From a virus (taxonomy: Duplodnaviria > Heunggongvirae > Uroviricota > Caudoviricetes): DNA of 64,000 nucleotides. Position numbers and translations under genes: made by a program. The stretch covers positions 24,956-88,955 of IMG/VR virus record IMGVR_UViG_3300049014_000001, one strand, 5' to 3'. The first letter of the stretch is position 1. Each line of letters starts with the position of its first letter. The notes under the pieces were generated by a model. That model saw only the letters and a program-made list of their open reading frames with translations, did not search any database and was not told where the DNA came from. This document shows, in pieces, positions 3,288 to 18,665 of the stretch.

Positions 3288-3289
3288 AA

Positions 3290-4162: not shown

Positions 4163-4164
4163 GA

Positions 4165-4608
4165 TTAATCCTCAGTTACCAGATTGGCAGCAGTGGTTAC
4201 GCGTGGAATAACTCCAGCAGCCATAGTTACGTTAGGAGTCGCAGTTCCTTTGTAAAGAATCTTGCCTGCTCCTGAGCTAGCCGTACCAATACTGAAGTGA
4301 GTAATAGCAGCACCCGGAGATGCCGTGCAAGCAGGGAAGTCTAGATTATTAACTAGATTCACGGCATTAGCTGTGACAGTAAATCCTCCAGTTGTTCGGG
4401 CTACGGCCATTCGCGTATATCCAGTGTATGTGGTTTCGTTTGTCGTTTGATCGCCAGTTTCGCCGGGGTCTGCTGTATGCAGTGCAAAATATAGGCTACC
4501 GGCAGCGGCAGATGGTTGAAGTCCCGAAGCATCCCCGATAAGAGGAATTGCTACGTTGTTGAATACCAGTTTCAGGTAGTCATTTTCGAAGGTATTACCT
4601 TTTGACAT
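4165..4608 (-). CDS. Hypothetical structural protein
   Basis: 147-aa ORF, first gene after the tRNA-array terminator; G/T/A-rich. Confidence 0.55.
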   Translation of the reverse strand: MSKGNTFENDYLKLVFNNVAIPLIGDASGLQPSAAAGSLYFALHTADPGETGDQTTNETTYTGYTRMAVARTTGGFTVTANAVNLVNNLDFPACTASPGAAITHFSIGTASSGAGKILYKGTATPNVTMAAGVIPRVTTAANLVTED

Positions 4609-4629
4609 ATTACGTCCTTTTTGAGATAA

Positions 4630-4664
4630 AGAAAAAGCCCGTAACCTTTTAAGGCACGGGCTTG
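4630..4664 (-). terminator. Intrinsic terminator after tRNA array (minus strand)
   Basis: aaaaagcccgtaaccttttaaggcacgggctt: 8-bp GC stem then U-run on the minus strand. Confidence 0.55.
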
Positions 4665-4699
4665 GTGTTTGAGGACGTTAACCACACTGTCCTCGTGTG

Positions 4700-4772
4700 T
4701 GGAACCAAACCAAGGAGTTGAACCTTGTATCTGCGGTTCGTAGCCGCTGAGCCGATATCCGTCGGGTCTGGT
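4700..4772 (-). tRNA. tRNA-Arg (anticodon ACG), short D-loop
   Basis: T-arm CAAGG-TTCAACT-CCTTG, acceptor ACCAGAC/GTTTGGT, anticodon loop CTACGAA, CCA encoded. Confidence 0.6.
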
Positions 4773-4780
4773 ATTGTTCT

Positions 4781-4854
4781 TGGACACGCTAGCGGGATTT
4801 TAACCCGCCTACGGAGCTTTGCAGGCAACTACCTAGTCACTCGGCCATAGCGTG
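4781..4854 (-). tRNA. tRNA-like element, identity unresolved
   Basis: Perfect acceptor CACGCTA/TAGCGTG and CCA, T-arm GCGGG-TTAAAAT-CCCGC, but the anticodon arm does not fold by hand. Confidence 0.35.
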
Positions 4855-4859
4855 CGTTC

Positions 4860-4942
4860 TGGTGGACTATATCAGGAATCGAACCCGACTTCCCCCGCCC
4901 TACTACCAAGATGTATGGTTAGCGGGTAAATAGCCCATAGTC
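4860..4942 (-). tRNA. tRNA-like element, identity unresolved
   Basis: T-arm TCGGG-TTCGATT-CCTGA and acceptor-like ends GACTATG/TATAGTC; the interior is irregular. Confidence 0.35.
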
Positions 4943-5016
4943 TGGTACTCCGTGAAAGAATCGAACTTTCGTACTCGCCGTGTAAAGACGACGTTCTACC
5001 ATTGAACTAACAGAGC
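4943..5016 (-). tRNA. tRNA-Val (anticodon TAC)
   Basis: GCTCTGT TA GTTC-AATGGTA-GAAC, anticodon arm TCGTC-TTTACAC-GGCGA, T-arm GAAAG-TTCGATT-CTTTC, ACCA 3' end. Confidence 0.75.
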
Positions 5017-5274
5017 ATTGTTCGTGGTTCTTTATTATCCCTTACGAGGATTATTCTTCAACCGGCTAAACGGACTCTTCAATCTAACCCGGACCATTGG
5101 CTAGAGAGGCTACTATACTGCATACGCGTACGTTGCAGTTACGTTTGGTCGTGAGTACGTACCATCTAAGCTTTCACCGCAAGACCCATACGCGCCCATG
5201 CACGAGCTAACGCTGCCCTCCTTGCAACTCCTACTTACTTAGCGGCCCAGTTGCGAACTGGCCTCACGATTGAC

Positions 5275-5351
5275 TTGGTATTGCATAGCGGATTCGAACC
5301 CCTATCCACGGATTGAAAGTCCATGTGTCCTAACCATTAGACGAATGCAAT
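5275..5351 (-). tRNA. tRNA-Glu (anticodon TTC)
   Basis: D arm GTCT-AATGGTTA-GGAC, anticodon arm ATGGA-CTTTCAA-TCCGT, T-loop TTCGAAT, CCA. Confidence 0.7.
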
Positions 5352-5358
5352 ATAAATT

Positions 5359-5445
5359 TGGTGCAGTGACTAGGATTTGAACCTAGACGGAACTAGCCGA
5401 CCTGCGGGTTACAGCCGCGTACCCTACCGAATGGGTGTTCACTAC
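5359..5445 (-). tRNA. tRNA-Tyr (anticodon GTA), class II with long variable arm
   Basis: 87 nt, acceptor GTAGTGA/TCACTGC, anticodon loop CTGTAAC, T-arm CTAGG-TTCAAAT-CCTAG, CCA. Confidence 0.65.
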
Positions 5446-5454
5446 ATTGTTTCT

Positions 5455-5529
5455 TGGTGCACCCGGTTGGTAACGCTCCAACCTCTTGAGGGTTTCAATC
5501 TCACACTAATCTATCTCAGTTACAGGTGC
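5455..5529 (-). tRNA. tRNA-Phe-like (anticodon GAA) with non-canonical T-loop
   Basis: Acceptor GCACCTG/CGGGTGC, D arm ACTG-AGATAGAT-TAGT, anticodon loop TTGAAAC, but the T-loop reads AGCGTTA instead of TTCRANN. Confidence 0.5.
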
Positions 5530-5546
5530 ATAAATGTTCTTAGTTG

Positions 5547-5621
5547 TGGGGTGAGCACTGGGAATTGAACCCAGATAAACGCCTTCACAGGGCGCGTCAC
5601 TAACCGTTGTGATATGCCCAC
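5547..5621 (-). tRNA. tRNA-His (anticodon GTG)
   Basis: D arm TCAC-AACGGTTA-GTGA, anticodon arm GCGCC-CTGTGAA-GGCGT, discriminator C, CCA. Confidence 0.75.
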
Positions 5622-5643
5622 AACTAAAAACATTCTAATACTT

Positions 5644-5731
5644 TGGTACGCGTAGTTGGAATCGAACCAACTCTGGACTTGCGTCTCGGTAGATTAAAAG
5701 TCTACTGCCTACCCACTTCGGCATTACGCGT
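5644..5731 (-). tRNA. Class II-scaffold tRNA with Lys-type anticodon loop CTTTTAA (anticodon TTT)
   Basis: 88 nt; perfect acceptor ACGCGTA/TACGCGT, 3-bp D stem, anticodon arm GTAGA-CTTTTAA-TCTAC, ~17-nt variable stem-loop, T-arm GTTGG-TTCGATT-CCAAC, A73, CCA. Confidence 0.55.
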
Positions 5732-5822
5732 ATAAAACAGCCCTACGCTACAACGGCCACCATTGGAAGAATCCAACACAATGATATAGACGTTACACCG
5801 CAACTTCTGTCAGGCTGTATAT

Positions 5823-5906
5823 TGGTACACAAGGCGAGACTTGAACTCGCAATCCCGAAGGCCACAGGGTTTGAGCCTGCTGCGTATGCCGTTCCGCCAC
5901 TCGTGC
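5823..5906 (-). tRNA. tRNA-Leu (anticodon CAA), class II
   Basis: 84 nt; D stem GCG/CGC, anticodon arm GCAGG-CTCAAAC-CCTGT, long variable arm, T-arm GCGAG-TTCAAGT-CTCGC, CCA. Confidence 0.7.
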
Positions 5907-6034
5907 ATTGTTTAATTTGACTAGGCTATCCTCACGTCGTCTTACTCTTGGATATGCGATACCACTTTGTATGGAGCCGACAGACGATCCGCCCCGTACT
6001 AGGTTCCCTCCGCTAAGAGGCATCAGTCAAAACT

Positions 6035-6118
6035 TGGTAGGCTAGGAGGGATTCGAACCCTCAAAGGCCCTGCTTCTAAGGCAGGTAGGTGTACCAGATT
6101 TCCATTAGCCACCAGCCC
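6035..6118 (-). tRNA. tRNA-like, possibly Leu (anticodon TAG) with irregular D region
   Basis: Anticodon arm CCTGC-CTTAGAA-GCAGG, T-arm GAGGG-TTCGAAT-CCCTC and acceptor GGGCTGG/CTAGCCT are clear; about 7 extra nt lie between the acceptor and anticodon stem. Confidence 0.45.
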
Positions 6119-6274
6119 ATTATATTCTGGCTACAGTTTTGTTCAGGTCGTAGCCACCTGTCCTTGTCGGGAGTTTCCGTCCCATACGGGCCGAAACAGA
6201 TTGTAGATGGCGCTATCGCCAGATCGGACGCACTGCCGTACAGTATCGGAGTTTAACCGTACATCTACAAAACT

Positions 6275-6350
6275 TGGCGCGGGCGACAGGATTCGAACCT
6301 GCAACGAACGGCTTGGAAGGCCGACACTCTGCCACTTGAGCTACGCACGC
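6275..6350 (-). tRNA. tRNA-Gly (anticodon TCC)
   Basis: GCGTGCG TA GCTC-AAGTGGCA-GAGT, anticodon loop CTTCCAA, T-arm GCAGG-TTCGAAT-CCTGT, GCCA end. Confidence 0.75.
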
Positions 6351-6413
6351 ATTGTATTTGCTAGCATACTAACCTACTAGCGGGTGTACCCATCACACTA
6401 CTGGGCCATAACT

Positions 6414-6490
6414 TGGCGCGATGTATCGGTTTCGAACCGATGACCCTCTGCTCGACAGGCAGGCGCTCTAACCATCTGAGCTAACACCGC
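6414..6490 (-). tRNA. tRNA-Asp (anticodon GTC)
   Basis: GCGGTGT TA GCTC-AGATGGTTA-GAGC, anticodon arm CCTGC-CTGTCGA-GCAGA, T-loop TTCGAAA, GCCA. Confidence 0.8.
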
Positions 6491-6498
6491 ATATATTC

Positions 6499-6574
6499 TG
6501 GCTGTGAGGGTAGGCTTCGAACCTACATCAACCTGATTAACAGTCAGGAGCTTTACCAATTAAGCTACTTCACA
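6499..6574 (-). tRNA. tRNA-Asn (anticodon GTT)
   Basis: D arm GCTT-AATTGGTA-AAGC, anticodon arm CCTGA-CTGTTAA-TCAGG, T-arm GTAGG-TTCGAAG-CCTAC, CCA. Confidence 0.75.
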
Positions 6575-6697
6575 ATTGTTCTGTACGGGCTTTGCACCAC
6601 ATTTGAGAGTTTCAGATTCATGCCACTCTTAACTTTGTTCCAGCTACCTCTTCCGTCCCACAGCGCAGGCTTACAGGTTGATTCTCTGGACGTGCTC

Positions 6698-6773
6698 TGG
6701 TTGCGAAGAGTGGGAGTCGAACCCACGACACGAAGGTTATGAGCCTCCTGTTCTACCGCTGAACTATCTCGCA
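6698..6773 (-). tRNA. tRNA-Met (anticodon CAT; elongator, Ile2 or initiator not resolved)
   Basis: D arm GTTC-AGCGGTA-GAAC, anticodon arm GGAGG-CTCATAA-CCTTC, T-arm GTGGG-TTCGACT-CCCAC, 3' GCAACCA; acceptor pairing slightly irregular by hand. Confidence 0.65.
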
Positions 6774-6779
6774 ATTGTT

Positions 6780-6854
6780 TGGCTCCCTGTGTTGGAATTG
6801 AACCAACGTTGTCCATCATTAGCCGGTTTGCGCACAAGTCCGGGTTAAACAGGA
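6780..6854 (-). tRNA. tRNA-like element, identity unresolved
   Basis: T-arm GTTGG-TTCAATT-CCAAC, CCA and acceptor-like ends present; the interior does not fold into standard D and anticodon arms. Confidence 0.3.
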
Positions 6855-6941
6855 AATTATTCGGCCCCTAGATTCTGTTTGTCGGCTCAAGGGTGGCCTC
6901 AGTGAGGGTAGATTAACTCACGCCGCTTCCGCGATTGCTCT

Positions 6942-7021
6942 TGGTGGAGAACATCGGATTCGAACCGATCTGATTAGCCTACTTGCAAGGCAGGTGTCCA
7001 CTCCCAGCAGACCCGATCCCC
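6942..7021 (-). tRNA. tRNA-Ala (anticodon TGC)
   Basis: GGGGATC GG GTCT-GCTGGGAGT-GGAC, anticodon arm CCTGC-CTTGCAA-GTAGG, T-arm ATCGG-TTCGAAT-CCGAT, ACCA. Confidence 0.7.
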
Positions 7022-7140
7022 AATATTTGTTACGTAGTGCTACTATACTACATGCTCAACGATTTGTCAAGCATTTTGAATTCTGGTCAGGGTAGGTGGC
7101 TCTGCCCCACCGTCCTCTCGCTTCCAAGGCGAGCCGTCTA

Positions 7141-7566
7141 CTAGGCTGACAATATACCCTGAGTATTTAGTCCTGCATACCAATTAAATTGTTCAGCAGT
7201 TCTCATAGCATGACAGTTTGCACAAAGCACCTGACATTTAGCTATCTCTTCTTTAATTTTCTTCAAAGCCAGTCCACGCATTTGTGAAACGTTTGCAGAC
7301 TTTGTACTACGATCTATGTGATCGAACTGAAGGCAAGGAACCCTAGCTTCTCCACATTCAACACATGGGTGTTCCAGCAGATAGTCATACACGTATTGCC
7401 AATTGGCTTTACGTAACTCTAATTGTTGATCGTATTTAATTTGCTTCTTTTCCTCGCTTCTGTTTGCGTGATACTTTCTATCATACTCCCGCTTGCAAGG
7501 TCTACATAGTTTAGATCTTTGTCCGTATGGCTCGTACGCCACTTGGCACGAGCTACACGTTCTCAT
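7141..7566 (-). CDS. HNH homing-type endonuclease
   Basis: 141 aa; paired Cys clusters CSSC...CRPC...CVEC and HNH core FDHIDR...N...LCANCH; immediately flanks the tRNA array. Confidence 0.8.
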   Translation of the reverse strand: MRTCSSCQVAYEPYGQRSKLCRPCKREYDRKYHANRSEEKKQIKYDQQLELRKANWQYVYDYLLEHPCVECGEARVPCLQFDHIDRSTKSANVSQMRGLALKKIKEEIAKCQVLCANCHAMRTAEQFNWYAGLNTQGILSA

Positions 7567-7582
7567 ACGCCCTCAAGTTGTT

Positions 7583-7669
7583 TGGTGCTGCCTGTGTGAT
7601 TCGAACACACGTTGGGATTTCTCCGCTGGGTTACAAAGCCAGTGCCTTCAACCTCTCAGCCAAAGCAGC
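7583..7669 (-). tRNA. Class II-scaffold tRNA with anticodon loop TTTGTAA (anticodon TGT, Thr-type)
   Basis: 87 nt; acceptor GCTGCTT/AGGCAGC, Ser-like D arm TG-GCT-GAGAGGTTGAA-GGC, anticodon stem CTGG/CCAG, long variable stem-loop GGA-GAAA-TCC, T-arm GTGTG-TTCGAAT-CACAC, A73, CCA. Confidence 0.5.
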
Positions 7670-7982
7670 ATAAATTCTTCCCGCTTACGTTTATGCGGGG
7701 AATGAAGAATCTTTCATCGCGGATTCAACACACCGTATCGGGCAACCAACCCAAGGAGAACAACGGAAGGACAGTCACCGTGAAGCAATGGAGCAACCCG
7801 TAAAGCTTCACTTCGGGGACGGTTACTGCGCCAAGCGTGGATGCAACAACCACGCCATCGAGATAGGATTACCTCCTTTCGGATGGTGAATCAAGTGGCG
7901 ACTGTCCTAATTCTGCATCTCAGCGGTTTCTTCTGAGAGCTTTATTCGTACTCGATTTCTCAAGTAACGCTATCATACACTA

Positions 7983-8189
7983 TCAAACGCTACTTGTCAA
8001 GTTTTGTGCTTTCTTAGCTTCCTTCTTGTCCTTCTTCAGGATAACTCGGACTTGTCGAAGCTGTTCTGCGATGTCCGTACGACCATTTGCGGTGTAAGTG
8101 CGAATGGCGATGTACAGTGCCTGCCTTGACACTCCCTTAGCGCGCTCTACCGCTTCCTCTAAGGTAAGGTCTTTCCATCGTTGGGCCAT
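7983..8189 (-). CDS. Hypothetical small basic protein, possibly DNA-binding
   Basis: 68-aa ORF in track with a Lys-rich tail. Confidence 0.45.
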   Translation of the reverse strand: MAQRWKDLTLEEAVERAKGVSRQALYIAIRTYTANGRTDIAEQLRQVRVILKKDKKEAKKAQNLTSSV

Positions 8190-8192
8190 TGG

Positions 8193-8531
8193 TTAAACTT
8201 TCTGAATTGTAGTCATGTCCAGTCGTGGGCCAGTAGGCTTCGTATTGCCTGTTGCTGGTACGAGAGGTGTCTTAGGGCCAGTAGCCTTGATTTCTGCGAT
8301 CTGGCGAGTCAGCTCATCCTTGTTGATGGCTTCACTAACGGCAATCTTGTAGTCGATGAGAATGTCTGCACACTTCAATCGTTCCTTCAAGCCTACCTTC
8401 TCATTGCGCATCGTCTCAGCAAGCAGATCAACCGCTTCTGGCGTAACGCTATCTAGTTGTTTCAAAAGGTCAGTAAGCTCATGCTTTCGCTTGATGAACA
8501 TCTGACCTGCTTTCAGTGCTACTACTGACAT
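8193..8531 (-). CDS. Hypothetical protein (start re-set to MSVVALKAGQ with GGAG RBS)
   Basis: Track ORF; the internal ATG at 8529-8531 has an RBS 9 nt upstream. Confidence 0.45.
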   Translation of the reverse strand: MSVVALKAGQMFIKRKHELTDLLKQLDSVTPEAVDLLAETMRNEKVGLKERLKCADILIDYKIAVSEAINKDELTRQIAEIKATGPKTPLVPATGNTKPTGPRLDMTTIQKV

Positions 8532-8820
8532 TGGGTACTCCGTGAAATACTTCGTATCATACACTACTTACCTAATTTTGTCAACTATACGCAACTGTCT
8601 TATATAACTAAGTAATATAACTATGTACACTTACTATATACTATAACATATAATTGTAATATACATAAGTAGTTTATTATTAAATTATCGATTGACTCTT
8701 CCCTTACGGGAGAGTCTTTTAATTTTATTGTTAACTATACCTTAAGTATTATATACTCCCTCACTCGCTGCGCTCGTTCGGTCGTAAGTATATAGCACTA
8801 ACTAGCTTTTGTCAAGTGTT

Positions 8821-8833
8821 GTGCCATTGGCAC
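8821..8833. promoter_or_regulatory. 13-bp palindrome GTGCC-ATT-GGCAC (same family as sites at 13.9-14.4 kb)
   Basis: Perfect inverted repeat just upstream of the 8849 promoter. Confidence 0.4.
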
Positions 8834-8848
8834 GTAAGTAGCTAGTAC

Positions 8849-8878
8849 TTGACAAATACATTGCTTCGCATGTACAAT
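8849..8878 (+). promoter_or_regulatory. Sigma70-like promoter TTGACA-18-TACAAT
   Basis: ttgacaaatacattgcttcgcatgtacaat upstream of the 8910 gene. Confidence 0.5.
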
Positions 8879-8909
8879 GATGTTTTCGTCAAATAAATAG
8901 GAGAGAACG

Positions 8910-9125
8910 TTGGCTAAGCAACAACTTAAAGAGGACATCGAAGAAGGTAGCAATAGCTACAACGTGTACTTCCGCGAAGATAGTGGACATCTTGGCCACA
9001 TCTATGCAGAGAACTACAAAGACCATAAGGAAGCAATCCTTTCTGTCAAGGAAACCCTTGTCGAAGAAGGTGATTGCCTTACAAACAAGGCGGTGCTTGC
9101 CGTCATCAATGGAGGTAAAACTTGA
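8910..9125 (+). CDS. Hypothetical protein (TTG start)
   Basis: Track ORF; RBS TAGGAGAG 6 nt upstream of TTG. Confidence 0.45.
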   Translation: MAKQQLKEDIEEGSNSYNVYFREDSGHLGHIYAENYKDHKEAILSVKETLVEEGDCLTNKAVLAVINGGKT

Positions 9126-9427
9126 AAACTGACTTTTTTGATATCACAGAAACCAATCTTGCAGAATTTGCAAAGAAACTGGAATCGCACCTGTTGGATG
9201 GCTGGGCCATCAGCAAACAGAATCCGGGCGATGTCATCGGACTGTATGGAGGTGTCTATACAATTTCTCTGTATCGCAACGATGAAACCATCAAACGTAT
9301 TCGCACTCGTGTAGCTGGGATTCAGGATGCTCCGAAGCTCGATAGGGCTACGATTCTCGCCAACGCTAGAGCGGCAAAGGCTGCTAAAGCGACAACAAAG
9401 GTTGATATTACGACAATTCGGGAATAA
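9122..9427 (+). CDS. Hypothetical protein (TTG start)
   Basis: Track ORF; RBS GGAGG precedes it; overlaps the previous stop. Confidence 0.45.
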   Translation: MKTDFFDITETNLAEFAKKLESHLLDGWAISKQNPGDVIGLYGGVYTISLYRNDETIKRIRTRVAGIQDAPKLDRATILANARAAKAAKATTKVDITTIRE

Positions 9428-9559
9428 AACAACGGTTTCGTAAAATAATCCTTGGTTTTCTGGCGGAAACATGTAATAGTGTTGTTCGTCGTGCAGGATT
9501 AACGGTTTTTAAACAAATTCTCACACATTATCACACTTGTTCGAAAGGAAATTGATCTA

Positions 9560-9934
9560 ATGGCAACTATGTCTATCCTCCGTCACGCTCTGGCACTGAA
9601 TGCCAAGGAAATCACCGCGATGCAAGCCTCTGTCGCACAATTCAAAGTGGAAGCCAAAGCTTGGCGTGAACAGGGAGAGCAAGCATATGCTGTAGCTGCA
9701 TCAAAAGACGTAGAAAAGCATCGTGCTAGCCTTTCCAAGCTGGTTACGATGCAACGTAAGATAAAAGCAGAGATACATGCTATCGAGCGCAATGAACGTA
9801 TCACTCGTAAGTACGCTATCGTGTTCGGTAAGGCACCTATCTTGCAATCGAAGACTAGCTACGAAATGGAATCGATGCTGGACACACTTCTCGCAGAAAA
9901 ACAAGCGGAAGCTGAAGTAGAAGCCGTGGCATAA
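9560..9934 (+). CDS. Hypothetical protein
   Basis: 124-aa ORF with RBS GAAAGGAAA. Confidence 0.5.
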   Translation: MATMSILRHALALNAKEITAMQASVAQFKVEAKAWREQGEQAYAVAASKDVEKHRASLSKLVTMQRKIKAEIHAIERNERITRKYAIVFGKAPILQSKTSYEMESMLDTLLAEKQAEAEVEAVA

Positions 9935-9942
9935 AAGCCACA

Positions 9943-9972
9943 AAGAAATGTGTTGACACGTCTAGGGTTTAT
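9943..9972 (+). promoter_or_regulatory. Promoter TTGACA-18-TGATAAT containing conserved spacer tctagggtttataca
   Basis: The same 15-mer spacer recurs at 13655-13670 behind another TTGAC box. Confidence 0.45.
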
Positions 9973-10011
9973 ACATGATAATTCCTTCATCAACCAACTG
10001 ACGGAGGAATT

Positions 10012-10716
10012 ATGAAAAAGCTCATCGGCTATGTACGTGTCTCCACCAAGGAGCAAGGCAAGACCAAGAACGGTTTGGAGGCTCAGGCCGAAGCCATCCG
10101 TCTGTTCGCACACTATAACGGCTACGAGCTGATTGACATCGCAGAAGAAGTGATGTCCGGTGCTGATGATAACCGTCCTGTCCTCGCAGAAGTGACACGT
10201 CGAGCTGCCAAACTGGGCGCATACGTGGTCGTCAACAAGCTGGATCGTCTGTCTCGTAATGCCCTGTTCATCCTGAAGTATATCGATCAGAATAGCAAGT
10301 TCATCGTGACCATGCTTGGGGATAACGTAGACCCGTTCATGCTCCACATCTACGCCGGTTTGGCGGAAAAGGAGCGCATGATGATCGCAGAACGCACCAA
10401 GGCAGCTCTGGCCGCTAAAAAGGCCCGTGGTGAAGCTCTGGGGGCGTCTGAAGCTGTGCTGGAGAAGGCAAGGGTCAGTGCTGGAGCTGCCGAAGCCACG
10501 AAGGCAGATGACTTTGCAGCCCGTTTGCGCCCGACTCTGACCCGCATGAAGAAAGATGGCATGACCCTGCGTGAAATGGCTCAGGAATTGAATGCCAGCG
10601 GCACGAAAACGGCTCGTGGTGGCGAATGGCATCCAACAATTTTTAAAAAGGTGGTTTTTCTCTTGGTTGATTGCGGGCTCCGCCCACGCCCCAGTTGGGG
10701 CTTTACAAAAACATAG
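10012..10716 (+). CDS. Small serine recombinase (resolvase/invertase family)
   Basis: N-terminal IGYVRVSTKEQ catalytic-serine motif, ...SGADDNRP..., LDRLSRN, C-terminal HTH; about 200-230 aa. Confidence 0.85.
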   Translation: MKKLIGYVRVSTKEQGKTKNGLEAQAEAIRLFAHYNGYELIDIAEEVMSGADDNRPVLAEVTRRAAKLGAYVVVNKLDRLSRNALFILKYIDQNSKFIVTMLGDNVDPFMLHIYAGLAEKERMMIAERTKAALAAKKARGEALGASEAVLEKARVSAGAAEATKADDFAARLRPTLTRMKKDGMTLREMAQELNASGTKTARGGEWHPTIFKKVVFLLVDCGLRPRPSWGFTKT

Positions 10717-10742
10717 CTAGTACTACTAACCAAGGAGAAAAT

Positions 10743-11339
10743 ATGACCCCTGCACAACGTTGCGCAAAAGTTTCCCAGAACATGGACAACATTGCCCTCA
10801 TCACCTTCGCCATTGGCTTCTGCAAAGCCGCCCACTTCGGCCAGAAACGTAAATGGTCGTTCGAACCTTATTGGACTCACCCTATGGCGGTGGCAAACAT
10901 CCTGCATGAACACGGCCACAATGACCCTCACATGCAAATTGTCGCCCTGCTGCACGATGTAGTAGAGGACACGCCTATCACTCTGGAAGAAATCACTGAG
11001 CACTTTGGCGAAAAGGTAGCTGAAGATGTCCACTGGCTCACGAAAGTGGACTACAGCAAGCACACAGACCCCTTCGGCATGCCCCTGAAACGCGCTGCGA
11101 AGAAATTCCTTGAGAACCTTCGTCTGAGCCGCGCTCCACAGCACGTCAAAACGATTAAGCTTGCCGACCGCTTGCACAACATGACCATTCTCACGGAAGA
11201 CCCGGCTTTTGCTCCGCTCTACGCAGAAGAGACTCGTGAGCTTCTTGACTACGCCTTGAAAGAAGGCTGTCCTGTCCTGTGGGCAAAGCTGGACAAAATT
11301 ATCAAGAATTTCCAAAATCCTATTGACAAGGCTATCTAA
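10743..11339 (+). CDS. HD-domain hydrolase of the RelA/SpoT (p)ppGpp-hydrolase type (small alarmone hydrolase-like)
   Basis: H...HD motif with ALLHDVVEDT signature; start re-set to MTPAQR after RBS AAGGAGAAA. Confidence 0.65.
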   Translation: MTPAQRCAKVSQNMDNIALITFAIGFCKAAHFGQKRKWSFEPYWTHPMAVANILHEHGHNDPHMQIVALLHDVVEDTPITLEEITEHFGEKVAEDVHWLTKVDYSKHTDPFGMPLKRAAKKFLENLRLSRAPQHVKTIKLADRLHNMTILTEDPAFAPLYAEETRELLDYALKEGCPVLWAKLDKIIKNFQNPIDKAI

Positions 11340-11381
11340 GTAGCGCTACTATACTGCCTACCAACTAACCAAGGAGAAGAA

Positions 11382-11558
11382 ATGAATACCATGCAACAAG
11401 AATTCGATGCGGTAGTCGCCCATTTGTACGCTCAAGGGAAGCGTGCAGCAGTACTAGGACGCTGCAAGTATAGGTCTGATGAAGGAACTATGTGTGCGGT
11501 AGGCTGTCGCATTCCTAATAACATGTATAACCCTGCCATGGAAGGGGCGACATCCTGA
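11382..11558 (+). CDS. Hypothetical small Cys-containing protein (58 aa)
   Basis: ORF below track threshold with canonical UTR CTAACCAAGGAGAAGAAATG. Confidence 0.35.
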   Translation: MNTMQQEFDAVVAHLYAQGKRAAVLGRCKYRSDEGTMCAVGCRIPNNMYNPAMEGATS

Positions 11559-11593
11559 CAACTGAAATCAAAGCACTTAGATAAGGAGAAACT

Positions 11594-11785
11594 ATGCAAC
11601 AGATTATTACCTTCCTTCGTAAAGCCAAGAACATGATTCTGGCCCTGCTGATGGGTCTTGCTGTCGTACTGGCGGTAAGCCTTCTTGTTTTCCTGTCGGC
11701 AGCTCTGAAGGGCATGCTCATTCCGCTGATGTTCTTCTGCGGTGGTGTGTACCTCTTCTACCACTGGCTAGAGGGACGACAATAA
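11594..11785 (+). CDS. Small membrane protein
   Basis: 63 aa, two hydrophobic helices, RBS TAAGGAGAAA. Confidence 0.5.
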   Translation: MQQIITFLRKAKNMILALLMGLAVVLAVSLLVFLSAALKGMLIPLMFFCGGVYLFYHWLEGRQ

Positions 11786-11787
11786 GC

Positions 11788-12063
11788 ATGAACGGCCTAC
11801 CTTACAAAGATACCTTCGCAGCTAAAGGTAGCCAGCTCTACGAAGCTATCACGGAAGGACGTGATGAAGATGCAAAGAAAATCTACGCAGATACGACAGC
11901 TCGTTACCATGCCCTGCTGAATGGACTGTCCGTTCCAAAAGTAGTCGTGTCCGAGAAGAATCCTAAAATCTGGGCTATCCTCGCTGACGATGCAGAATAC
12001 GACAAGCAAGGAAGGCTCGTTAAGAAACTAGAGAAAGGAGGGAATGTAGATGTCAAGGTATAA
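11788..12063 (+). CDS. Hypothetical protein
   Basis: Track ORF in tight same-strand array. Confidence 0.45.
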   Translation: MNGLPYKDTFAAKGSQLYEAITEGRDEDAKKIYADTTARYHALLNGLSVPKVVVSEKNPKIWAILADDAEYDKQGRLVKKLEKGGNVDVKV

Positions 12064-12355
12064 AATTGGACAAGAACTGGAAATCCATTCCCTCAAAGGC
12101 TTCGGGAACGCACAAGAGAACGGTAGACGTGTAAGAGTTGTAAAGCTCCCCGGCTTCCATCCTACTTATCAAAGTAACTACCTCGTTCGCTACGTCGATA
12201 ACTCAAGAGAACTAGTAGCACACCCAGACTACCTACGTCCACCTCCACCACCTTCAAATCGTGGAGACATGGACAAGGTGACAAGCTGGGAAGAGTTCGA
12301 ATCTGTCACTCGCATCCCTGCCGATGTCGTACGAGGAACGGACAGTGAACACTGA
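12050..12355 (+). CDS. Hypothetical protein
   Basis: Track ORF; RBS GGAGGGAATG upstream. Confidence 0.45.
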   Translation: MSRYKIGQELEIHSLKGFGNAQENGRRVRVVKLPGFHPTYQSNYLVRYVDNSRELVAHPDYLRPPPPPSNRGDMDKVTSWEEFESVTRIPADVVRGTDSEH

Positions 12356-12372
12356 GAAGGAAGAATACACCT

Positions 12373-12567
12373 ATGAAGCACACGATTTCTCCCTCCGGGT
12401 GGGCGGGAAGAAGTCAGGAAGAGTTGTATGCGCAACGTGTGGCCTTGTACCGTCCAACACTCCATTCACTTTATGGGCAGTACGAATGGGATGCAACAAC
12501 CGCTACCATCCTTCCTACCACAACAAACGTTATGAAACAACCAAACTTTTCTAAGGAGAAACAATGA
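12373..12567 (+). CDS. Hypothetical protein
   Basis: Preferred over the overlapping 12324 ORF because of RBS AAGGAAG. Confidence 0.4.
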   Translation: MKHTISPSGWAGRSQEELYAQRVALYRPTLHSLYGQYEWDATTATILPTTTNVMKQPNFSKEKQ

Positions 12568-12902
12568 GACTACTACTTCAATGTCGTCTTATCAAAACAG
12601 AAAGACGATTGACATTCGATATTCTTTGGCAGAATGACCATCCAGACATCACATGGAACGGAGATGACGATGGAAATTATCACAAATTCACAGCTAGCAA
12701 CGGCTACGAAGTGATTTCCCGTTCCCGAATGGATATCCAAACAGAACGCATCTGGCTACTAGGTGCCAAGCGTAATGAAGAATCCCGCTCAGGAACAATG
12801 GTGTTCTCCAGCAACGAGAAACGTGATGCTGCTTACTGGAACTTCGTCATCGCACTCAAAGAATGGGCCGATCATAACAACGGATTCATAAATATTTTCT
12901 AA
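12564..12902 (+). CDS. Hypothetical protein
   Basis: RBS TAAGGAGAAACA; overlaps the previous stop. Confidence 0.5.
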   Translation: MRLLLQCRLIKTERRLTFDILWQNDHPDITWNGDDDGNYHKFTASNGYEVISRSRMDIQTERIWLLGAKRNEESRSGTMVFSSNEKRDAAYWNFVIALKEWADHNNGFINIF

Positions 12903-12912
12903 GGAGAAACAA

Positions 12913-13245
12913 ATGTCAGAACTGTCACTACCTACCATCGTACGTCATAAAGACGGAAGCATTTTTGCTATGGTAGAAGGAACACTTGAAGACTGGGTGA
13001 GCCTTGTTGTCATTCACGATACAGAACTCAAGCGGAAACCGGGAGAAGGAACTAAGAACTGCTGGCACCAATCCTCCGTCATCGACTGGATTGAAGATGG
13101 CACCTACAACGTAATCCACGGAGGCATCACAAACAAGCTAGAACCAATTCGTATCGAAATCGACTCCAGCCCCGTATCAGCAGCATTGGCAGAAGTGAAA
13201 GAACTGGAAGCTACCCTCCTTCGCGTAAAGAGTATGCTGAAATGA
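12913..13245 (+). CDS. Hypothetical protein
   Basis: RBS TAAGGAGAAACAA; followed by a terminator. Confidence 0.5.
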   Translation: MSELSLPTIVRHKDGSIFAMVEGTLEDWVSLVVIHDTELKRKPGEGTKNCWHQSSVIDWIEDGTYNVIHGGITNKLEPIRIEIDSSPVSAALAEVKELEATLLRVKSMLK

Positions 13246-13251
13246 TATCAG

Positions 13252-13280
13252 AAGGCTCCCTCCGGGGAGCCTTTTTTATT
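13252..13280 (+). terminator. Intrinsic terminator
   Basis: aaggctccc-tccg-gggagcctt hairpin then TTTTTTATTT. Confidence 0.7.
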
Positions 13281-13281
13281 T

Positions 13282-14600
13282 GGGCTAAAATTTCCTAAGT
13301 ATTTGATTCTAAAAATATTTTTTGAAGTACACCCTTCCAACATATCTACAACACTTGTTAGAAAATTATCATACCTACATCCTGACGAAATAGGCAGAAC
13401 TTTTATGGGCCGGGACAATGGGCTAACACTGGATATGAGCGAGGGCTAGCGGATGGCAATCCATGTTTGGCTATGGGTCTAGCGGATGGCTTAATGCGTG
13501 GCGGTGTGGGCACGAGGATGGCTGGGGCCTTCCAAAAATATCATGGCTGCATTTGTTTGAGGTAGGTAAGGGGTAGACATACCCTTTGGCTAAAACGGCT
13601 CAAAACGCGTTTAAATCGATTCTAGCACCATGTGTATAAATCATTGACGTTCGTCTAGGGTTTATACAAGGTAGGATGATAGTTGCACTAGCCACATAGT
13701 GAATCAGCTAGGAACATGGATAGGAACGCATAGGAAGCCCTATGAGGCGTTATCTAGGAGTGGCTAAGGGGTTGGCATAGGTAGGGCTAAATAAACGTCC
13801 TGTAGGGCCTCTACGCTTGCCTGAGTTAGAATTGCAATAAAGCAATGATTAGTGCACTAAACGTTGCATTGGCAGCATTATATGTGCCTGTGGCACGCAT
13901 ATTAATAATAAGAAACAATGTTTCGCGTTCGCTTGCTTTGCAATCGCCCGCCCTCACTGTCCATACACATAGATATAGCCCTGTATATGTGCCACCGGCA
14001 CCCCCTATATATGGCCCTAGGGGCCTCCCTATACACCCCCTCCTACAGAGGGTAGCCCTGTATGTAGTCCCATAGGGACAGCCCATTGTTTTAGATAGTT
14101 TGCTAATACATAGTGCACTATTTAATCGTACTTGAATGATTAGCGTACTAAGTGTTGTTGACAAACAACGAAATGTATGATATGCTATGCGTCGGGGCAT
14201 GAGCGCAGCGAATGCCTAATATACAAGTATTATATAAATGTATATATTATATGTTATATAACTATGTATATATGTGCCTATGGCACGACAGTATGTTAGT
14301 CCCTCTGGGACAGCTAGATATGGTGGCTAACAGCCACGCTATAGCCCCTCTCTCGCCCTTAGTCGGTCGATCAATCGAGGGGTAGCTAGCAAGGGTGTGC
14401 CATAGGCACGTATATACGTTATGTGGCTGTTAGCCACCATATAGCCTAGTCGCTTTGCTGAAAGCGTTTATAGGCCCTAGGAAGCGTTAATACGTGAGTT
14501 GGAATAGGAATATGCCAGAATAGGCGAGGATAGCCCTGTAGGGCCATAGAATGAGAAAAGTCAGCCTTGTTTAAGGGCTGGCTTTGTTGTTTGTGACTTA
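13282..14600. promoter_or_regulatory. AT-rich non-coding island with multiple palindromic protein-binding-type sites and promoter-like elements
   Basis: No credible ORF. GTGCC-N3-GGCAC at 13883-13895, 14274-14286 and 14397-14409. GTGGCTAACAGCCAC at 14323 and its inverse GTGGCTGTTAGCCAC at 14423, exactly 100 bp apart. TTGACA-17-TATGCT at 14158. The tctagggtttataca box is at 13655. Confidence 0.5.
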
Positions 14601-14606
14601 CTTGTT

Positions 14607-15173
14607 TTAAGCTTCTTCTCTCAGCTTTTCAACCCGTGCGGATCGTGCTGGATGAGTGTTTGTAGCTGGCAAAGGCTTAAGCAAGGCTTTCAGGGCTTTA
14701 GCTGGATCAATGCCATATTTGCGCATAATCTTGCCTGCAAAGCTATCGGCTGCATATTCTTGGGAATGGTTCAATTCCCTGTCGCCTTCACCATTACGGG
14801 CAGCTTCACCGTATTTAGCTAGCAGGTCGCTGTCGCTTTCAAATTTAGCGCTAGCCGGTGCGAAGCTTTCCACATACTTGCGGCCATGTCCCATTACCGA
14901 ATGGCCGAATTCATGGGCAAGGGCAAAGAACAGAGCGTTATCGTCCAATTCCTTAGTGTCCCCGAGGTGGATAATGTCCGGCTGGCCGATAACCCATTCA
15001 ACAGAGGCAACACGTACCGAGTAATCAACTAGGTACGTCACTTTGTGACCTGTTTCCTTTTCCAGCGTAGCGGCATACTCGCAAATACGCTTGTCCACCA
15101 TGTTGCAGGCATTCGCCGAAGCCAGCGAGAGGAAAGCGACGATTGCCAGCGAGAATTTAGCGAATGCTTCCAT
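14607..15173 (-). CDS. Secreted zinc metallopeptidase (HExxH; M48/M56-like)
   Basis: N-terminal signal peptide MEAFAKFSLAIVAFLSLASANA; HEFGHSVMGH motif. Confidence 0.7.
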   Translation of the reverse strand: MEAFAKFSLAIVAFLSLASANACNMVDKRICEYAATLEKETGHKVTYLVDYSVRVASVEWVIGQPDIIHLGDTKELDDNALFFALAHEFGHSVMGHGRKYVESFAPASAKFESDSDLLAKYGEAARNGEGDRELNHSQEYAADSFAGKIMRKYGIDPAKALKALLKPLPATNTHPARSARVEKLREEA

Positions 15174-15291
15174 TTTGATATTCCTTTCAGAGAATTAGTA
15201 AAGTGTGTTGCTGAAACTCAATTATACAATGACCATCAGCATACACAAGCGGAATGTTTAACGAGTGTTGTTTATTCTCGCTTTATCCCCC

Positions 15292-15909
15292 TTAGACCGT
15301 AAAATGTTTGATGATGCTCATATTGTCCATCGACAGAAATTCGTCAACAGTGAGAATTTCTTGTTTAATGTCTTCCGCATAGCCTTCGCGGAAGTAAGGG
15401 GCATCTTTGTAATTGATGCTCAAACGGATAGTAACTTGTGGAACATTTTTGTTATTCCAGTAGTCAGAATGATTGAAGCCTTCCACAAACATTTGAAGCT
15501 GCAACACTGCACCGTCGCTGAACCATTCGTTTTCATAGTCCCAATATTTTTCCTTTTCCTCTTGGGACATAGAATCATAGTCAAATGATTCTAGCTTATT
15601 GTCATGCACGTACATTTGTTGGCAAGTCTCCATTTGGCTATTAGCATTATCAGTTTGCTTTTCGGTGAAATGATAGGAGCTATCGCAATCATTGCGATAC
15701 ATCCTAGAGACACTATAGCCACCGTCCTGCTTAGGAATCCAGCCGGATACATAATTCCCCTCAATTTCGTCTGTCCGTGTGTCTGTAAGGCTATCATAGC
15801 CCTTATGCCCGGTTACAAGAGTGCTTTCCCATTCGTTTTCGGCAAGGTTAGCCAATGCTGCCAGTTTGGTTTGAATTGCAGCCGGTACAGTAGATTTAAA
15901 GTGTTTCAT
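15292..15909 (-). CDS. Hypothetical protein
   Basis: 205-aa track ORF in minus-strand array. Confidence 0.5.
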   Translation of the reverse strand: MKHFKSTVPAAIQTKLAALANLAENEWESTLVTGHKGYDSLTDTRTDEIEGNYVSGWIPKQDGGYSVSRMYRNDCDSSYHFTEKQTDNANSQMETCQQMYVHDNKLESFDYDSMSQEEKEKYWDYENEWFSDGAVLQLQMFVEGFNHSDYWNNKNVPQVTIRLSINYKDAPYFREGYAEDIKQEILTVDEFLSMDNMSIIKHFTV

Positions 15910-15978
15910 TTTAAAGATTCCTTTCGTGTGTTAGAACATATGTAAATGGACATTAATAAATGCCCATTGGCCTAGGCT

Positions 15979-16311
15979 CTAGCTTCCGTCCATTAAGTCT
16001 TGCTCATCATTCCCATAAGCCGACTCGATTTTCAGGCCGGTATGAGCACAAAACAGGCTTTCATCCTCCCAGTTAATCTCCATTGCAACGATATTCCAAT
16101 CGTCATGCAAGCAATCAACCTTGCCGCCAGAGTCAACGAAGCGATTGCAGCTAATGATTGCATCCCGGATCAAACCGGCATTCTCTTTTGCTGCTGCAAA
16201 GCTAATTGCCTCCCCATCCTGCGCGATGAAATAAAACGGATAGCCTCCCGGCCATGCATAAGGCCCAATGTCCAATGCTTTGTTAAAGTCAAATACTGTT
16301 TTGATGTTCAT
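15979..16311 (-). CDS. Hypothetical protein
   Basis: 110-aa track ORF. Confidence 0.5.
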   Translation of the reverse strand: MNIKTVFDFNKALDIGPYAWPGGYPFYFIAQDGEAISFAAAKENAGLIRDAIISCNRFVDSGGKVDCLHDDWNIVAMEINWEDESLFCAHTGLKIESAYGNDEQDLMDGS

Positions 16312-16312
16312 G

Positions 16313-16522
16313 TTAATTTCCTCGCAGTTTCATTGCTACAGCCTGCAATGCAATATGATCCATGCTGTATTGATTGCCATTGCGGTAGCGGCGCAATACG
16401 GCTTTATCGTCCATATCAAGCCAGCTAATCTTTTCCGCCTCTTCCAATGCATCCATGTGAAAACTGAGGCCCAAAGCGATGTTATCCAGCTTTTTGATTA
16501 ATGCTTTACGTTCACGTTTCAT
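16313..16522 (-). CDS. Hypothetical protein
   Basis: 69-aa track ORF abutting its neighbours. Confidence 0.4.
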   Translation of the reverse strand: MKRERKALIKKLDNIALGLSFHMDALEEAEKISWLDMDDKAVLRRYRNGNQYSMDHIALQAVAMKLRGN

Positions 16523-17136
16523 ACAATATTCCCTTCAATGTCGAATTCATATTCATTAATTTGAAGGCTCTCGATTACCTGTTCGTCCGAAGTGAGATAG
16601 TCTTGCTCATCTTCTAGGCGCTTATAAATCCAGTCGGCAAAATCACGCATGGATTGAGTAATTTCATCTTCCGCGTCTCCGATATCCCGATACATGCTAT
16701 CAGTATTATGAACGTCAACAGACATACAGCCGGAATGGTAATAATGCCCGCGATGTTTCATTGTACAGGCCAGCTTGTAGAAGTTTCGGCGTTGCGTAGT
16801 TTGCAATTCCTTTGCAATACGCTGCAATTCAATATCTTGCGGAAACTCTTTTGAAATGGCCTGTACAGAGCCTTTAGCGTAGCTGTAAGAGCCTTCAAAA
16901 CATGCCCCGTTCCCTTGTGACCAAAAGCCGTTAAAGTAGATTGTAGGCATGTTTCCGCGTTTAGAATCCAGCAGGATACCTAACAGCACGGCAGCAGCTT
17001 CTGCCTGAATATAAACGCCTTCAAACCAGCTACTATCCGAACAGGCCACGTTTTGTTTATACCAGTCGCGGGCCTTTTCTTTTGCTTTGTCGTTCAATTC
17101 GTCATACTGGAAAACATCTTTGGAAATGGTACGCAT
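16519..17136 (-). CDS. Hypothetical protein
   Basis: 205-aa track ORF. Confidence 0.5.
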   Translation of the reverse strand: MRTISKDVFQYDELNDKAKEKARDWYKQNVACSDSSWFEGVYIQAEAAAVLLGILLDSKRGNMPTIYFNGFWSQGNGACFEGSYSYAKGSVQAISKEFPQDIELQRIAKELQTTQRRNFYKLACTMKHRGHYYHSGCMSVDVHNTDSMYRDIGDAEDEITQSMRDFADWIYKRLEDEQDYLTSDEQVIESLQINEYEFDIEGNIV

Positions 17137-17210
17137 AATAAAATCCTTTCGTGTGAATTCTGTTGTTAAACAATTCCGACAATGCCCACTATTACATGGG
17201 CATTAGCTGA

Positions 17211-17420
17211 CTAGCTTAACCTATGGCTAGGCCATACATGCTTAGTAGGCTTTCCGTCGATTCTAACGACAGTAACCCAGACATATTTAACGCCATGTAC
17301 GTTTGTATTTTCTACATGCTCATAACTGTAGATTTTAGCTATGTATCCGTTATCCCCTCTGTCCGGGGGACATTGGACAATCTTGCCGCATTTCAATTCA
17401 GAGATTTTCATTACAGCCAC
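17211..17420 (-). CDS. Hypothetical protein
   Basis: 69-aa track ORF. Confidence 0.4.
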   Translation of the reverse strand: MAVMKISELKCGKIVQCPPDRGDNGYIAKIYSYEHVENTNVHGVKYVWVTVVRIDGKPTKHVWPSHRLS

Positions 17421-17824: not shown

Positions 17825-17827
17825 GGC

Positions 17828-18145: not shown

Positions 18146-18357
18146 ATTATCCCCTCAAATAGCCGCACAGAGCCGCGACAAGCGTAGCAGCTACAATTAC
18201 AGCAATGTCCCCGGCCAAAGTCGTTTCATAGTTATTCGGGTGCAGTTGGCGAGGTGTAAACAGTTTTGCTCTCAATTTCTGTACTTTAGTACGAATCATT
18301 TGTCTCTCACTTTTGGAGTTAGTCCGTGTATGCCCTCACACAAAGGGCATAAGCTGA

Positions 18358-18546: not shown

Positions 18547-18665
18547 TTTATTGCCCCTTGATTGCTTGTTTAATTGCTTTGTAAGCCAAGTACGCTTGAT
18601 AGCGTGCGGCCTGATTTTGTGGCGTTACGACATAAGGCATTGTTTAGGCCCTTTCGTTTGATTAG

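Follow-up and report, generated by a model that had tools for sequence, protein, structure and literature searches.

The 64,000-nucleotide stretch analysed here (positions 24,956 to 88,955 of the IMG/VR virus record IMGVR_UViG_3300049014_000001, hereafter the window) comes from a Caudoviricetes phage and encodes a small serine recombinase (Rec, gene rec) followed on the same strand by a small alarmone hydrolase (SAH). The probable cognate site of Rec is a dyad of two 17-nt arms around a 2-bp centre. In the phage lineage of the window, one arm of the dyad is left upstream of rec, inside the promoter of the gene, and the full dyad is found distally, in a non-coding region with origin-like features. 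This layout of sites is the new result, both kinds of gene being already known. Numbers with the prefix L (L001, L002 and so on) refer to fetched comparison contigs or loci, and the features on which the argument turns are as follows.

9953-9982, plus strand: sigma-70-type promoter of the rec-SAH unit (TTGACA, 18 nt, GATAAT), matching the consensus at 11 of 12 positions
9959-9975, plus strand: recombinase half-site CGTCTAGGGTTTATACA, inside the promoter spacer, from a 17-mer match and covariation
10012-10716, plus strand: Rec, small serine recombinase, 234 amino acids (aa) in the window, from Pfam Resolvase and catalytic residues
10638-10684, plus strand: patch with 19 substitutions in 47 bp relative to the sister contig L001
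10688-10701, plus strand: GC-rich hairpin, GCCCCAGTTGGGGC then TTTACAAAAA, between rec and SAH, read from the sequence
10743-11339, plus strand: SAH, hydrolase-only RelA/SpoT homologue (RSH), 198 aa, from HD_4, TIGR00691 and PDB matches
13280-14560: non-coding region of 1.3 kb between convergent terminators, holding the full dyad
13603-13612, no strand: palindrome AAACGCGTTT, 43 bp from the dyad centre
13633-13668, no strand: full dyad TGTATAAATCATTGACG-TT-CGTCTAGGGTTTATACA, candidate Rec crossover or binding site, its arms matching at 14 of 17 positions
19872-20664: DnaA-box cluster in a stretch free of open reading frames (ORFs), with five perfect TTATCCACA boxes and three one-mismatch boxes

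The 64 kb contain exactly two copies of the 17-mer CGTCTAGGGTTTATACA, at 9959-9975 and 13652-13668, with 0.1 expected even when three mismatches are allowed; the right arm of the distal dyad is identical to the promoter half-site and has the same (direct) orientation. The dyad itself is the only one of its type in the window and lies 3.6 kb downstream of the promoter half-site. Within each of five genomes (the window, L002, L007, L008 and L016) the promoter half-site and both distal arms covary, reading CGTCTGATGCTTGTTCA / CGTCTGATGTTTGTTCA / CGTGTGTTAGTTGTTCA in L007 and ...TTTTGAAG / ...TTTTGACG / ...TTTTGACC in L016, and the -35 element of the rec promoter, together with the adjoining CGTCT, is invariant in five related genomes. 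The 17-mer is absent from IMG/VR. Just upstream of rec in L011, an otherwise unrelated locus, stands the dyad AAACCCTAGACG-GT-CGTGTAGGGTTT, one arm of which equals the first 12 bases of the window half-site, CGTCTAGGGTTT. The association was then quantified across the recombinase family by a scan for 12+2+12 dyads in the 140 bp around the rec start, covering 80 viral and 80 bacterial loci fetched by the recombinase (153 of them distinct, from phages, prophages and islands) and 2954 control windows. Dyads with at least 10 of 12 arm matches were present in 19.6% of the 153 loci against 0.95% of controls, a roughly 20-fold difference, and those with at least 9 of 12 in 41.8% against 8.5%. The family dyad spans 26 bp, with the half-site consensus CGTWTRnnnTTT and a 2-bp centre that is most commonly GT, its centres cluster ~41 bp before the rec start codon, and the geometry of the distal dyad of the window agrees with it. 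It is because of this association with rec across unrelated backgrounds, together with the covariation of the arms, that the dyad is regarded as the probable site of Rec.

The recombinase is itself of an unusual build. Residues 5-141 match the Pfam Resolvase family PF00239 (E 5.5e-28), the sole Pfam match at E < 0.01, with neither HTH_7 nor a zinc ribbon detected, and the protein matches PHROG 125 'DNA invertase' at 1.3e-34. The motifs GYVRVSTKEQ and KLDRLSRN align position by position with Gin, the catalytic Ser (S11) included, and R9, S11, D78, R79 and R82 do not vary across 26 aligned homologues; the equivalent Arg/Asp cluster in gamma-delta consists of R8, D67, R68 and R71. A Ser in the YxRVST motif, and an Arg/Asp cluster combined with an E-helix in the structural model, place Rec in the serine recombinase superfamily. 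The sequence-only reading of this DNA had named a small serine recombinase of this kind, not a large integrase, and had proposed an alignment of the catalytic Ser as a check; on both counts it is borne out, as it is in its assignment of the adjacent HD protein to the RelA/SpoT hydrolase type, apart from a correction of the start to 10743. The family-typical Rec has 220 aa and stops at 10674, and the window copy ends instead at 10716 because of the dense substitution patch, which gives a range of 220-234 aa. An AlphaFold model (mean pLDDT, the predicted local distance difference test, 82.8) contains the catalytic domain and the E-helix (108-138), followed by a C-terminal part with a long helix (147-181) and two short ones (186-196 and 208-222). 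The top PDB match by sequence is Gin (2.7e-18), and the top Foldseek match is the large serine recombinase Bxb1, in an alignment reaching past the catalytic domain. PF07508 (Recombinase) appears in precomputed Pfam annotation of many homologues and is faint for P0001, where its strength was given. The C-terminal helices match large serine recombinases, not HTH_7, and the model suggests that the DNA-binding region is short, helical and similar to the start of their 'recombinase domain'. With a Gin-like catalytic part and a Bxb1-like fold, Rec therefore fits neither the classical HTH_7 invertases and resolvases nor the large integrases, and belongs to a distinct, poorly described family of compact (~220-aa) serine recombinases.

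Homologues with 48-98% identity were found on ten contigs of 88-96 kb. The position of Rec is constant by synteny in five distinct genomes of this ~90-kb family, and the ratio of nonsynonymous to synonymous substitution (dN/dS) against its relatives is 0.13-0.19; together these argue for a maintained function. In other phages the neighbours of rec include genes for an AAA_25 primase/helicase, DUF1376, a ParB-methylase and terminase. A search of 185,579 bacterial genomes recovered no member of the 90-kb phage family, the best matches having at most 50% identity, and several bacterial genomes hold multiple copies of rec homologues. A foreign origin of rec and SAH was considered from GC content at third codon positions (GC3, ~0.60), which exceeds that of neighbouring small ORFs; the value is uninformative because it equals that of core genes such as PolA.

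The region around the distal dyad has much in it besides the dyad. Between 13280 and 14560 lie four perfect GTGCCNNNGGCAC palindromes (at 13884, 13989, 14274 and 14397; a fifth occurs at 8821, in the divergent early-promoter region), nested inverted repeats at 14266-14442 and a very AT-rich run at ~14210-14265, and an Rfam scan of the region returned nothing. Judged by its sequence, it looks like an origin or operator array. A DnaA-box-like sequence overlaps the left arm of the distal dyad, and L002 and L007 have a perfect DnaA box after the right arm. The DnaA-box cluster that the sequence-only reading had mentioned was recovered at 19872-20664, with an inverted repeat at 20229-20307 inside it; such a cluster is unexpected for a lytic-type phage with its own primase/helicase and polymerase. 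The two non-coding regions have a module in common, the AAACGCGTTT palindrome followed by a DnaA-box-like sequence, the second palindrome copy standing at 20003-20012 in the DnaA-box region. The AAACGCGTTT palindrome belongs to a 23-nt block identical across the window, L002 and L007, as is the block CTCAAAACGCGTTTAAATCGATT of the shared module; it resembles the family inner half-sites without a spacer and is possibly an accessory or host-factor site. A 26-nt inverted repeat also connects the two regions (13614-13639 and 19894-19919, 88% complementary). It was rejected as a pair of inversion sites, being not dyad-symmetric, having DnaA-box-like content and flanking a block that is uninverted in relatives.

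As to the reaction that Rec performs, single-site multimer resolution or cyclisation in the manner of Cre/loxP, combined with autoregulation, is the best fit, and it is given an even chance of being correct. Rec would bind the promoter half-site, its presumed operator, and so repress its own transcription. It would recombine the full dyad with its counterpart on a sister copy, whether in a dimer, a concatemer or terminally redundant DNA, so that replicating multimers would become monomer circles or the genome would be cyclised, with the non-palindromic TT centre supplying the needed polarity. The system would then be a serine-recombinase counterpart of Cre/loxP or of a plasmid multimer-resolution system. 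A link to replication counts in favour of this model, namely the position of the dyad in an origin-like non-coding region and of rec near primase/helicase and terminase genes elsewhere. Confidence goes no higher because no recombination product (deletion, inversion or dimer junction) was seen, because ~25 kb of the genome, about a quarter, lies outside the window, where a second site is therefore possible, and because the benefit to a lytic phage is unclear, packaging from concatemers creating no obvious need for monomerisation. Further points weigh on the same side. A simple-site resolvase has no topological filter and could therefore fuse molecules as readily as resolve them, and the allele in the window has a scrambled terminal helix. 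The case for binding of the dyad by Rec consists of association and covariation only, a mutual-information test of protein columns against half-site positions having been swamped by shared ancestry (means were equal for the catalytic and C-terminal regions, although the top value was one between last-helix residues and the outermost half-site position).

A wider generalisation of the model, judged unlikely, can be stated as follows. Compact serine recombinases of an undescribed family would each act on one simple 26-36-bp dyad per replicon, Cre/loxP-like and without accessory sites, and arm specificity would have diversified across hundreds of phages and islands; lytic-type 90-kb phages would have moved the crossover site to the replication origin and left an operator half-site at the gene, and the 47-bp patch would be a real population-level knock-out or re-targeting. 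If the pairing of Rec with the dyad is true, the family would offer many small, naturally orthogonal recombinase-site pairs for genome engineering. The layout also raises the question of why a lytic-type phage keeps a site-specific recombinase beside its presumed origin.

Multimer resolution and an invertible switch were the two roles that had been suggested from the sequence alone, with a search for res- or gix-like inverted repeats as the way to follow them up. The former is plausible and gains support from a single candidate site in an origin-like region, but this is a simple dyad, not a three-part res, and no product was observed. The search for repeats in the 64 kb likewise gave one full dyad (13633-13668), but no second site and no three-part res. 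The switch, in which Rec would be a Gin/Hin/Cin-type invertase flipping a segment so as to change gene expression, is the least probable of the alternatives weighed here. Invertase systems have one crossover site just upstream of the recombinase gene, and Rec is not without resemblance to them, with Gin as its best match among solved structures, the name 'DNA invertase' on PHROG 125, and a family dyad of 26 bp in a 12+2+12 geometry whose inner AAACG/CGTTT arms presumably resemble hix/gix; yet the window holds one full dyad, and the promoter carries a half-site only, as a direct and not an inverted copy. Within 10 kb, no second dyad was found in 72 family loci, and no partner dyad or half-site above chance in 41-72 of them (extra half-sites numbered 7 against 5.3 expected); nor were accessory half-sites found within 300 bp of the dyad in the 13 loci examined. 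Five related genomes are collinear in gene order and orientation, with no inverted segment, HTH_7 was not detected, and no tail-fibre-like cassette adjoins. With neither a second site nor accessory sites found, and with relatives showing no inversions, the switch is thus unsupported. That Rec is an integrase, with the dyad as attP and a cryptic lysogenic or host-genome-targeting ability, is also very improbable. Classically, int and attP are laid out as a recombinase gene with one simple site beside it, the C-terminal region resembles large serine integrases, and the small serine recombinase of the Ralstonia phage phiRSM reportedly acts as an integrase. Homologues do occur in bacterial chromosomes and islands, but the dyads of these chromosomal copies are intact, symmetric and lineage-specific, not hybrid attL/attR sites, and lie kilobases from island-flanking tRNA genes, none of the bacterial loci having a tRNA gene next to the dyad as an integration target; Rec is therefore not the integrase there. 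In L152 (Microvirga zambiensis), a duplicated tRNA-Leu(CAG), at 3397-3481 and 14123-14207, brackets an island of ~10.7 kb with a rec homologue and dyad; the tRNA copies are kilobases from rec, and the rec-dyad module is carried inside a small tRNA-integrated element. Also contrary to an integrase are the absence of the 90-kb family from the bacterial genomes searched, the lytic-type gene set of the window, in which no integrase, repressor or partition (ParAB) genes were found, and the lack in Rec of the zinc-ribbon and coiled-coil domains behind attP x attB selectivity.

The gene order at rec invites another alternative, namely that rec belongs with its downstream gene to a selfish or mobile cassette, in which the recombinase would work mostly for its own spread, with variable accessory or anti-defence genes (here SAH) as cargo, and the dyad would be chiefly an operator. 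The segment 3' of rec does differ among relatives, which have SAH alone, SAH with RtcB, a 1.9-kb insert before SAH, or no SAH. Among ~80 viral loci, SAH stands beside rec in three settings: the clade of the window, L016, where it is 2 kb away from rec, and L071 and L072, unrelated smaller phage contigs in which rec (38% identity) overlaps SAH by ATGA (L071 7534-8750, likewise L072), an instance of translational coupling. Genes for a primase/helicase and a RecE-like exonuclease lie near the L071 pair. Multiple copies in several bacterial genomes, and a statistical link of bacterial small serine recombinases to defence islands (PMC13552941), also point towards a cassette. Set against these are the fixed synteny and purifying selection of Rec across the 90-kb family, the lack of bounding repeats apart from the half-site at the promoter and the distal dyad, the covariation of dyad and promoter, which argues for a maintained phage function, and the fact that most family loci have replication or packaging genes beside rec, not defence cargo. 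The cassette is accordingly rated as quite unlikely. The adjacency of rec and SAH is mostly lineage-specific; SAH has the look of an accessory gene occupying a variable slot, any hint of co-mobility is weak at most, and the functional link between the two genes that had been implied from their proximity is weak as well, adjacency being confined to the clade of the window and one unrelated contig pair. The two genes are read as one early unit in the window, since no promoter separates them: no promoter-like site was found between the promoter at 9953-9982 and the SAH start, and the next one is at 11323, at the end of the SAH gene. The hairpin between the genes, replaced in L002 by a different hairpin, GCCCGTAAGGGC, at the same position, may be a weak terminator or an RNA stability element; a simple terminator scan did not call it.

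The end of rec in the window calls for caution. The Logan contig L001 equals window 3803-10710 (6.9 kb) except for the 19 patch substitutions, L005 equals window 10685-21339 exactly, and the two together span 17.5 kb. The patch turns the conserved C-terminal helix TTVKNVLDRMAA, followed by a stop, into TIFKKVVFLLVDCGLRPRPSWGFTKT, followed by a stop, with loss of the TGA stop at 10672-10674. The resulting tail is absent from all homologues and from 5.8 billion protein clusters, neither the window nor 160 loci yielded a donor sequence, and neither the patch nor its flanks had matches in IMG/VR or JGI metagenome contigs. A diversity-generating retroelement was rejected as the cause, there being no second copy of the template pattern in the window and the changes being not adenine-specific, with an AAAAA run kept in both alleles; a scan of the larger ORFs also brought up no reverse transcriptase. 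A local inversion or template switch was rejected as well, with no reverse-complement relation and no donor in the window or the 160 loci. The patch may be a real defective allele beside a canonical one, or an artefact of assembly or base-calling at a poorly covered spot by the GC hairpin; unless it is an assembly error, the Rec of the window, with its last helix scrambled, may not bind DNA. It is accordingly conceivable, if doubtful, that Rec is non-functional here, the DNA-recognition helix being destroyed by a real lesion, and that only SAH matters. The confinement of the substitutions to 10638-10684 amid 17.5 kb identical to the sister contigs, the changes at all codon positions without bias, the replacement of near-invariant residues and the removal of the stop would all suit a lesion, and the break of an independent assembly of SRR35217228 exactly at the right edge of the patch (contigs ending at 10710 and starting at 10685, with a 26-nt overlap) fits read-level heterogeneity. 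The same facts, however, fit an artefact: 11 of the 19 changes are to T, the tail occurs in no other sequence, and the overlap is shorter than k-1 = 30 and so points to a gap in coverage more than to a clean variant bubble, on the assumption that Logan contigs were assembled with k = 31. The binding sites themselves are unaltered. Whatever its origin, the patch is a warning that an ORF from a metagenome assembly may carry a corrupted or variant end that changes the predicted protein.

ATG 10743 is the start of the SAH gene; an AAGGAG ribosome-binding site precedes it, in a context found at other gene starts. TTG 10671, with which the longest ORF begins, is not the start. Pfam HD_4 matches residues 24-166 of the 198 (1e-19), and TIGR00691 (spoT_relA) matches at 3.6e-28 over model positions 3-122 of 687, which is the hydrolase part only. 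The top PDB matches are hydrolase domains of long Rel/SpoT enzymes (2.4e-18), with MESH1 at 1.4e-12, and PaSpo of the Salmonella phage SSU5 is 41% identical over 158 residues (E 2e-28). The motif set sought, HxxQxR, PYxxHP, HD, ED(T) and DRLHN, is complete in an alignment to the Rel hydrolase domain 5xnx (H31..R36, P42-Y43..H46-P47, H71-D72, E75-D76-T77 and D142-R143-L144-H145-N146). By these matches SAH is a hydrolase-only RSH, with a single HD domain of RelA/SpoT type and no synthetase domain. It is under purifying selection (dN/dS 0.12), and ~300 phage records contain a homologue. SAHs of SSU5 (PaSpo) and PVP-SE1 neutralise all toxSAS toxins tested, and SAHs were proposed to serve phages as a means of bypassing abortive infection based on alarmones (PMC7229694, Jimmy et al. 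2020). Kurata et al. found that SAHs can strip the 3' pyrophosphate put on tRNA by FaRel2-type toxins and that aminoacylation of the pyrophosphorylated tRNA is thereby restored (bioRxiv 10.1101/2021.04.30.441581). The counter-defence role suggested from the sequence alone coincides with this published hypothesis and is supported by the homologues, the kind of SAH found here being known already and adding one example to a known phage counter-measure.

SAH would act as a counter-measure of its own, separate from Rec and early in infection, most likely by hydrolysing (p)ppGpp or (p)ppApp, its predicted substrates, and/or by removing the 3' pyrophosphate placed on tRNA by a toxSAS of the CapRel or FaRel2 type, so that host and phage tRNAs would remain usable. 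In keeping with this, a tRNA array lies a few kb from SAH and an RNA ligase gene is present.

1106-7669, minus strand: tRNA array with at least 16 genes by ARAGORN, to which Rfam adds two or three weaker ones
29116-30270: Rnl-type RNA ligase (PHA02142 OB fold and RNA_ligase domain)

In L002, an RtcB RNA ligase gene (11350-12561) lies directly 3' of SAH, where the window has none. The tRNA array, the RNA ligase and the RtcB of L002 would fit a theme of tRNA protection, and the placement of SAH by the array and RNA-repair genes makes such a role directly testable. Telling against it, no characterised SAH is as close to the protein as the hydrolase domains of long Rel/SpoT enzymes are, and its substrate is a prediction. 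It is a serious, if less favoured, possibility that SAH instead targets the stringent response of the host, removing (p)ppGpp and keeping transcription, translation and nucleotide supply high during infection, and that it does not counter toxSAS specifically. Among solved structures, those closest to it are indeed (p)ppGpp hydrolase domains of long Rel/SpoT enzymes and not (p)ppApp-specific or antitoxin SAHs, and the authors of a related Pakpunavirus genome, in which a similar SAH gene is annotated, proposed the same general role (PMC12846349). On the other hand, phage SAHs at 41% identity neutralise tRNA-targeting toxSAS toxins, and the tRNA array, the ligase and the RtcB of the relative point to tRNA protection; the two roles are compatible with each other.

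The genome behind the window is ~89 kb long and tRNA-rich, with a lytic-type gene set. Its gene order is shared by a near-identical contig of 89,049 bp and several contigs of 86-96 kb. No close relative was found among cultured phages, and cultured-phage DNA searches, near and distant, gave zero matches for the rec-SAH region or the non-coding region. The cultured phages nearest in gene set are phiPsa374-like phages of Pseudomonas, to whose 98-kb members the primase/helicase has 55-57% identity; the gene set is also like that of the Pakpunavirus phage Adele, in which SAH and NAD+ reconstitution genes are also present. Genes of the window include those for DNA ligase, RNA ligase, ThyX, UvrD, PolA, ribonucleotide reductase, NAMPT and PRPP synthetase, and the segment from 8.6 to 13.2 kb is an early region of host-RNA-polymerase type, with strong sigma-70-like promoters. 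At 57916-60829 a PRPP-synthetase-like gene adjoins the NAMPT gene, forming a NAD+ reconstitution pair; such pairs have been reported in Pakpunaviruses as a counter to NAD-depleting defence. A 374-aa protein (34817-35941) has an N-terminal dATP/dGTP diphosphohydrolase domain (PF18909, 9.5e-17), which is also known in MazZ of 2-aminoadenine (Z-genome) phages, and an HNH endonuclease gene (7141-7566) sits within the tRNA array. An M48-like metallopeptidase gene at 14607-15173 forms the left end of the minus-strand early block; in L002 (20279-20644) and L007 (20027-20623) the same gene, in unchanged orientation, is at the right end, and its shift between the two non-coding regions is a transposition-like rearrangement. 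Contig ends in the Logan assembly of SRR35217228 map to window positions 3803, 10685/10710 and 64000. Position 3803 falls inside a tail-fibre-like gene that is not conserved in L002, and the far end of a 53,316-bp Logan contig is exactly 64000, assuming collinearity, which suggests that the window end coincides with a shared assembly break.

Among known systems, SAH is most readily compared with PaSpo of SSU5 and PbcSpo of PVP-SE1, with which it shares a single HD/RelA-SpoT hydrolase domain of ~200 aa, encoded by a phage and without a synthetase. It differs from them in its setting, a lytic-type tRNA-rich phage with predicted co-transcription with a recombinase, and in being nearer by sequence to the hydrolase domains of long Rel/SpoT enzymes. 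Rec has in common with Gin, Hin and Cin the catalytic domain and E-helix, a 26-bp dyad with 12-bp arms and a 2-bp centre as in gix and hix, and one site directly upstream of the recombinase gene and overlapping its promoter; it differs in lacking HTH_7, in having a helical C-terminus like that of large serine recombinases, and in that no second inverted site or invertible segment was found in the 64-kb window. Tn3/gamma-delta res, RK2 ParA, Sin and beta are likewise small serine recombinase systems with a site overlapping their own promoter, consistent with autoregulation, and plasmid multimer-resolution systems have one site per replicon, which in the window is near an origin-like region. Unlike in Tn3/gamma-delta, the Rec site is a single simple dyad, a three-subsite res was not found within 300 bp in family loci, and operator and full site are 3.6 kb apart in the window phage. 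The integrases of Bxb1, phiC31 and SPbeta resemble Rec in the fold match past the catalytic domain and in using simple sites without accessory factors; large serine recombinases, however, exceed 400 aa, whereas Rec, at 220-234 aa, is missing the zinc ribbon, the coiled coil and the greater part of the recombinase domain, and chromosomal sites of the Rec family are not attL/attR hybrids. Cre of P1 is a tyrosine recombinase of unrelated chemistry and fold, and P1 is a temperate plasmid prophage, whereas the window phage looks lytic. Under the favoured model of single-site resolution, it is nonetheless Cre/loxP that Rec would resemble in function, with one simple dyad per genome serving cyclisation and dimer resolution and with a recombinase gene that in other phages of the family often lies near the terminase genes.

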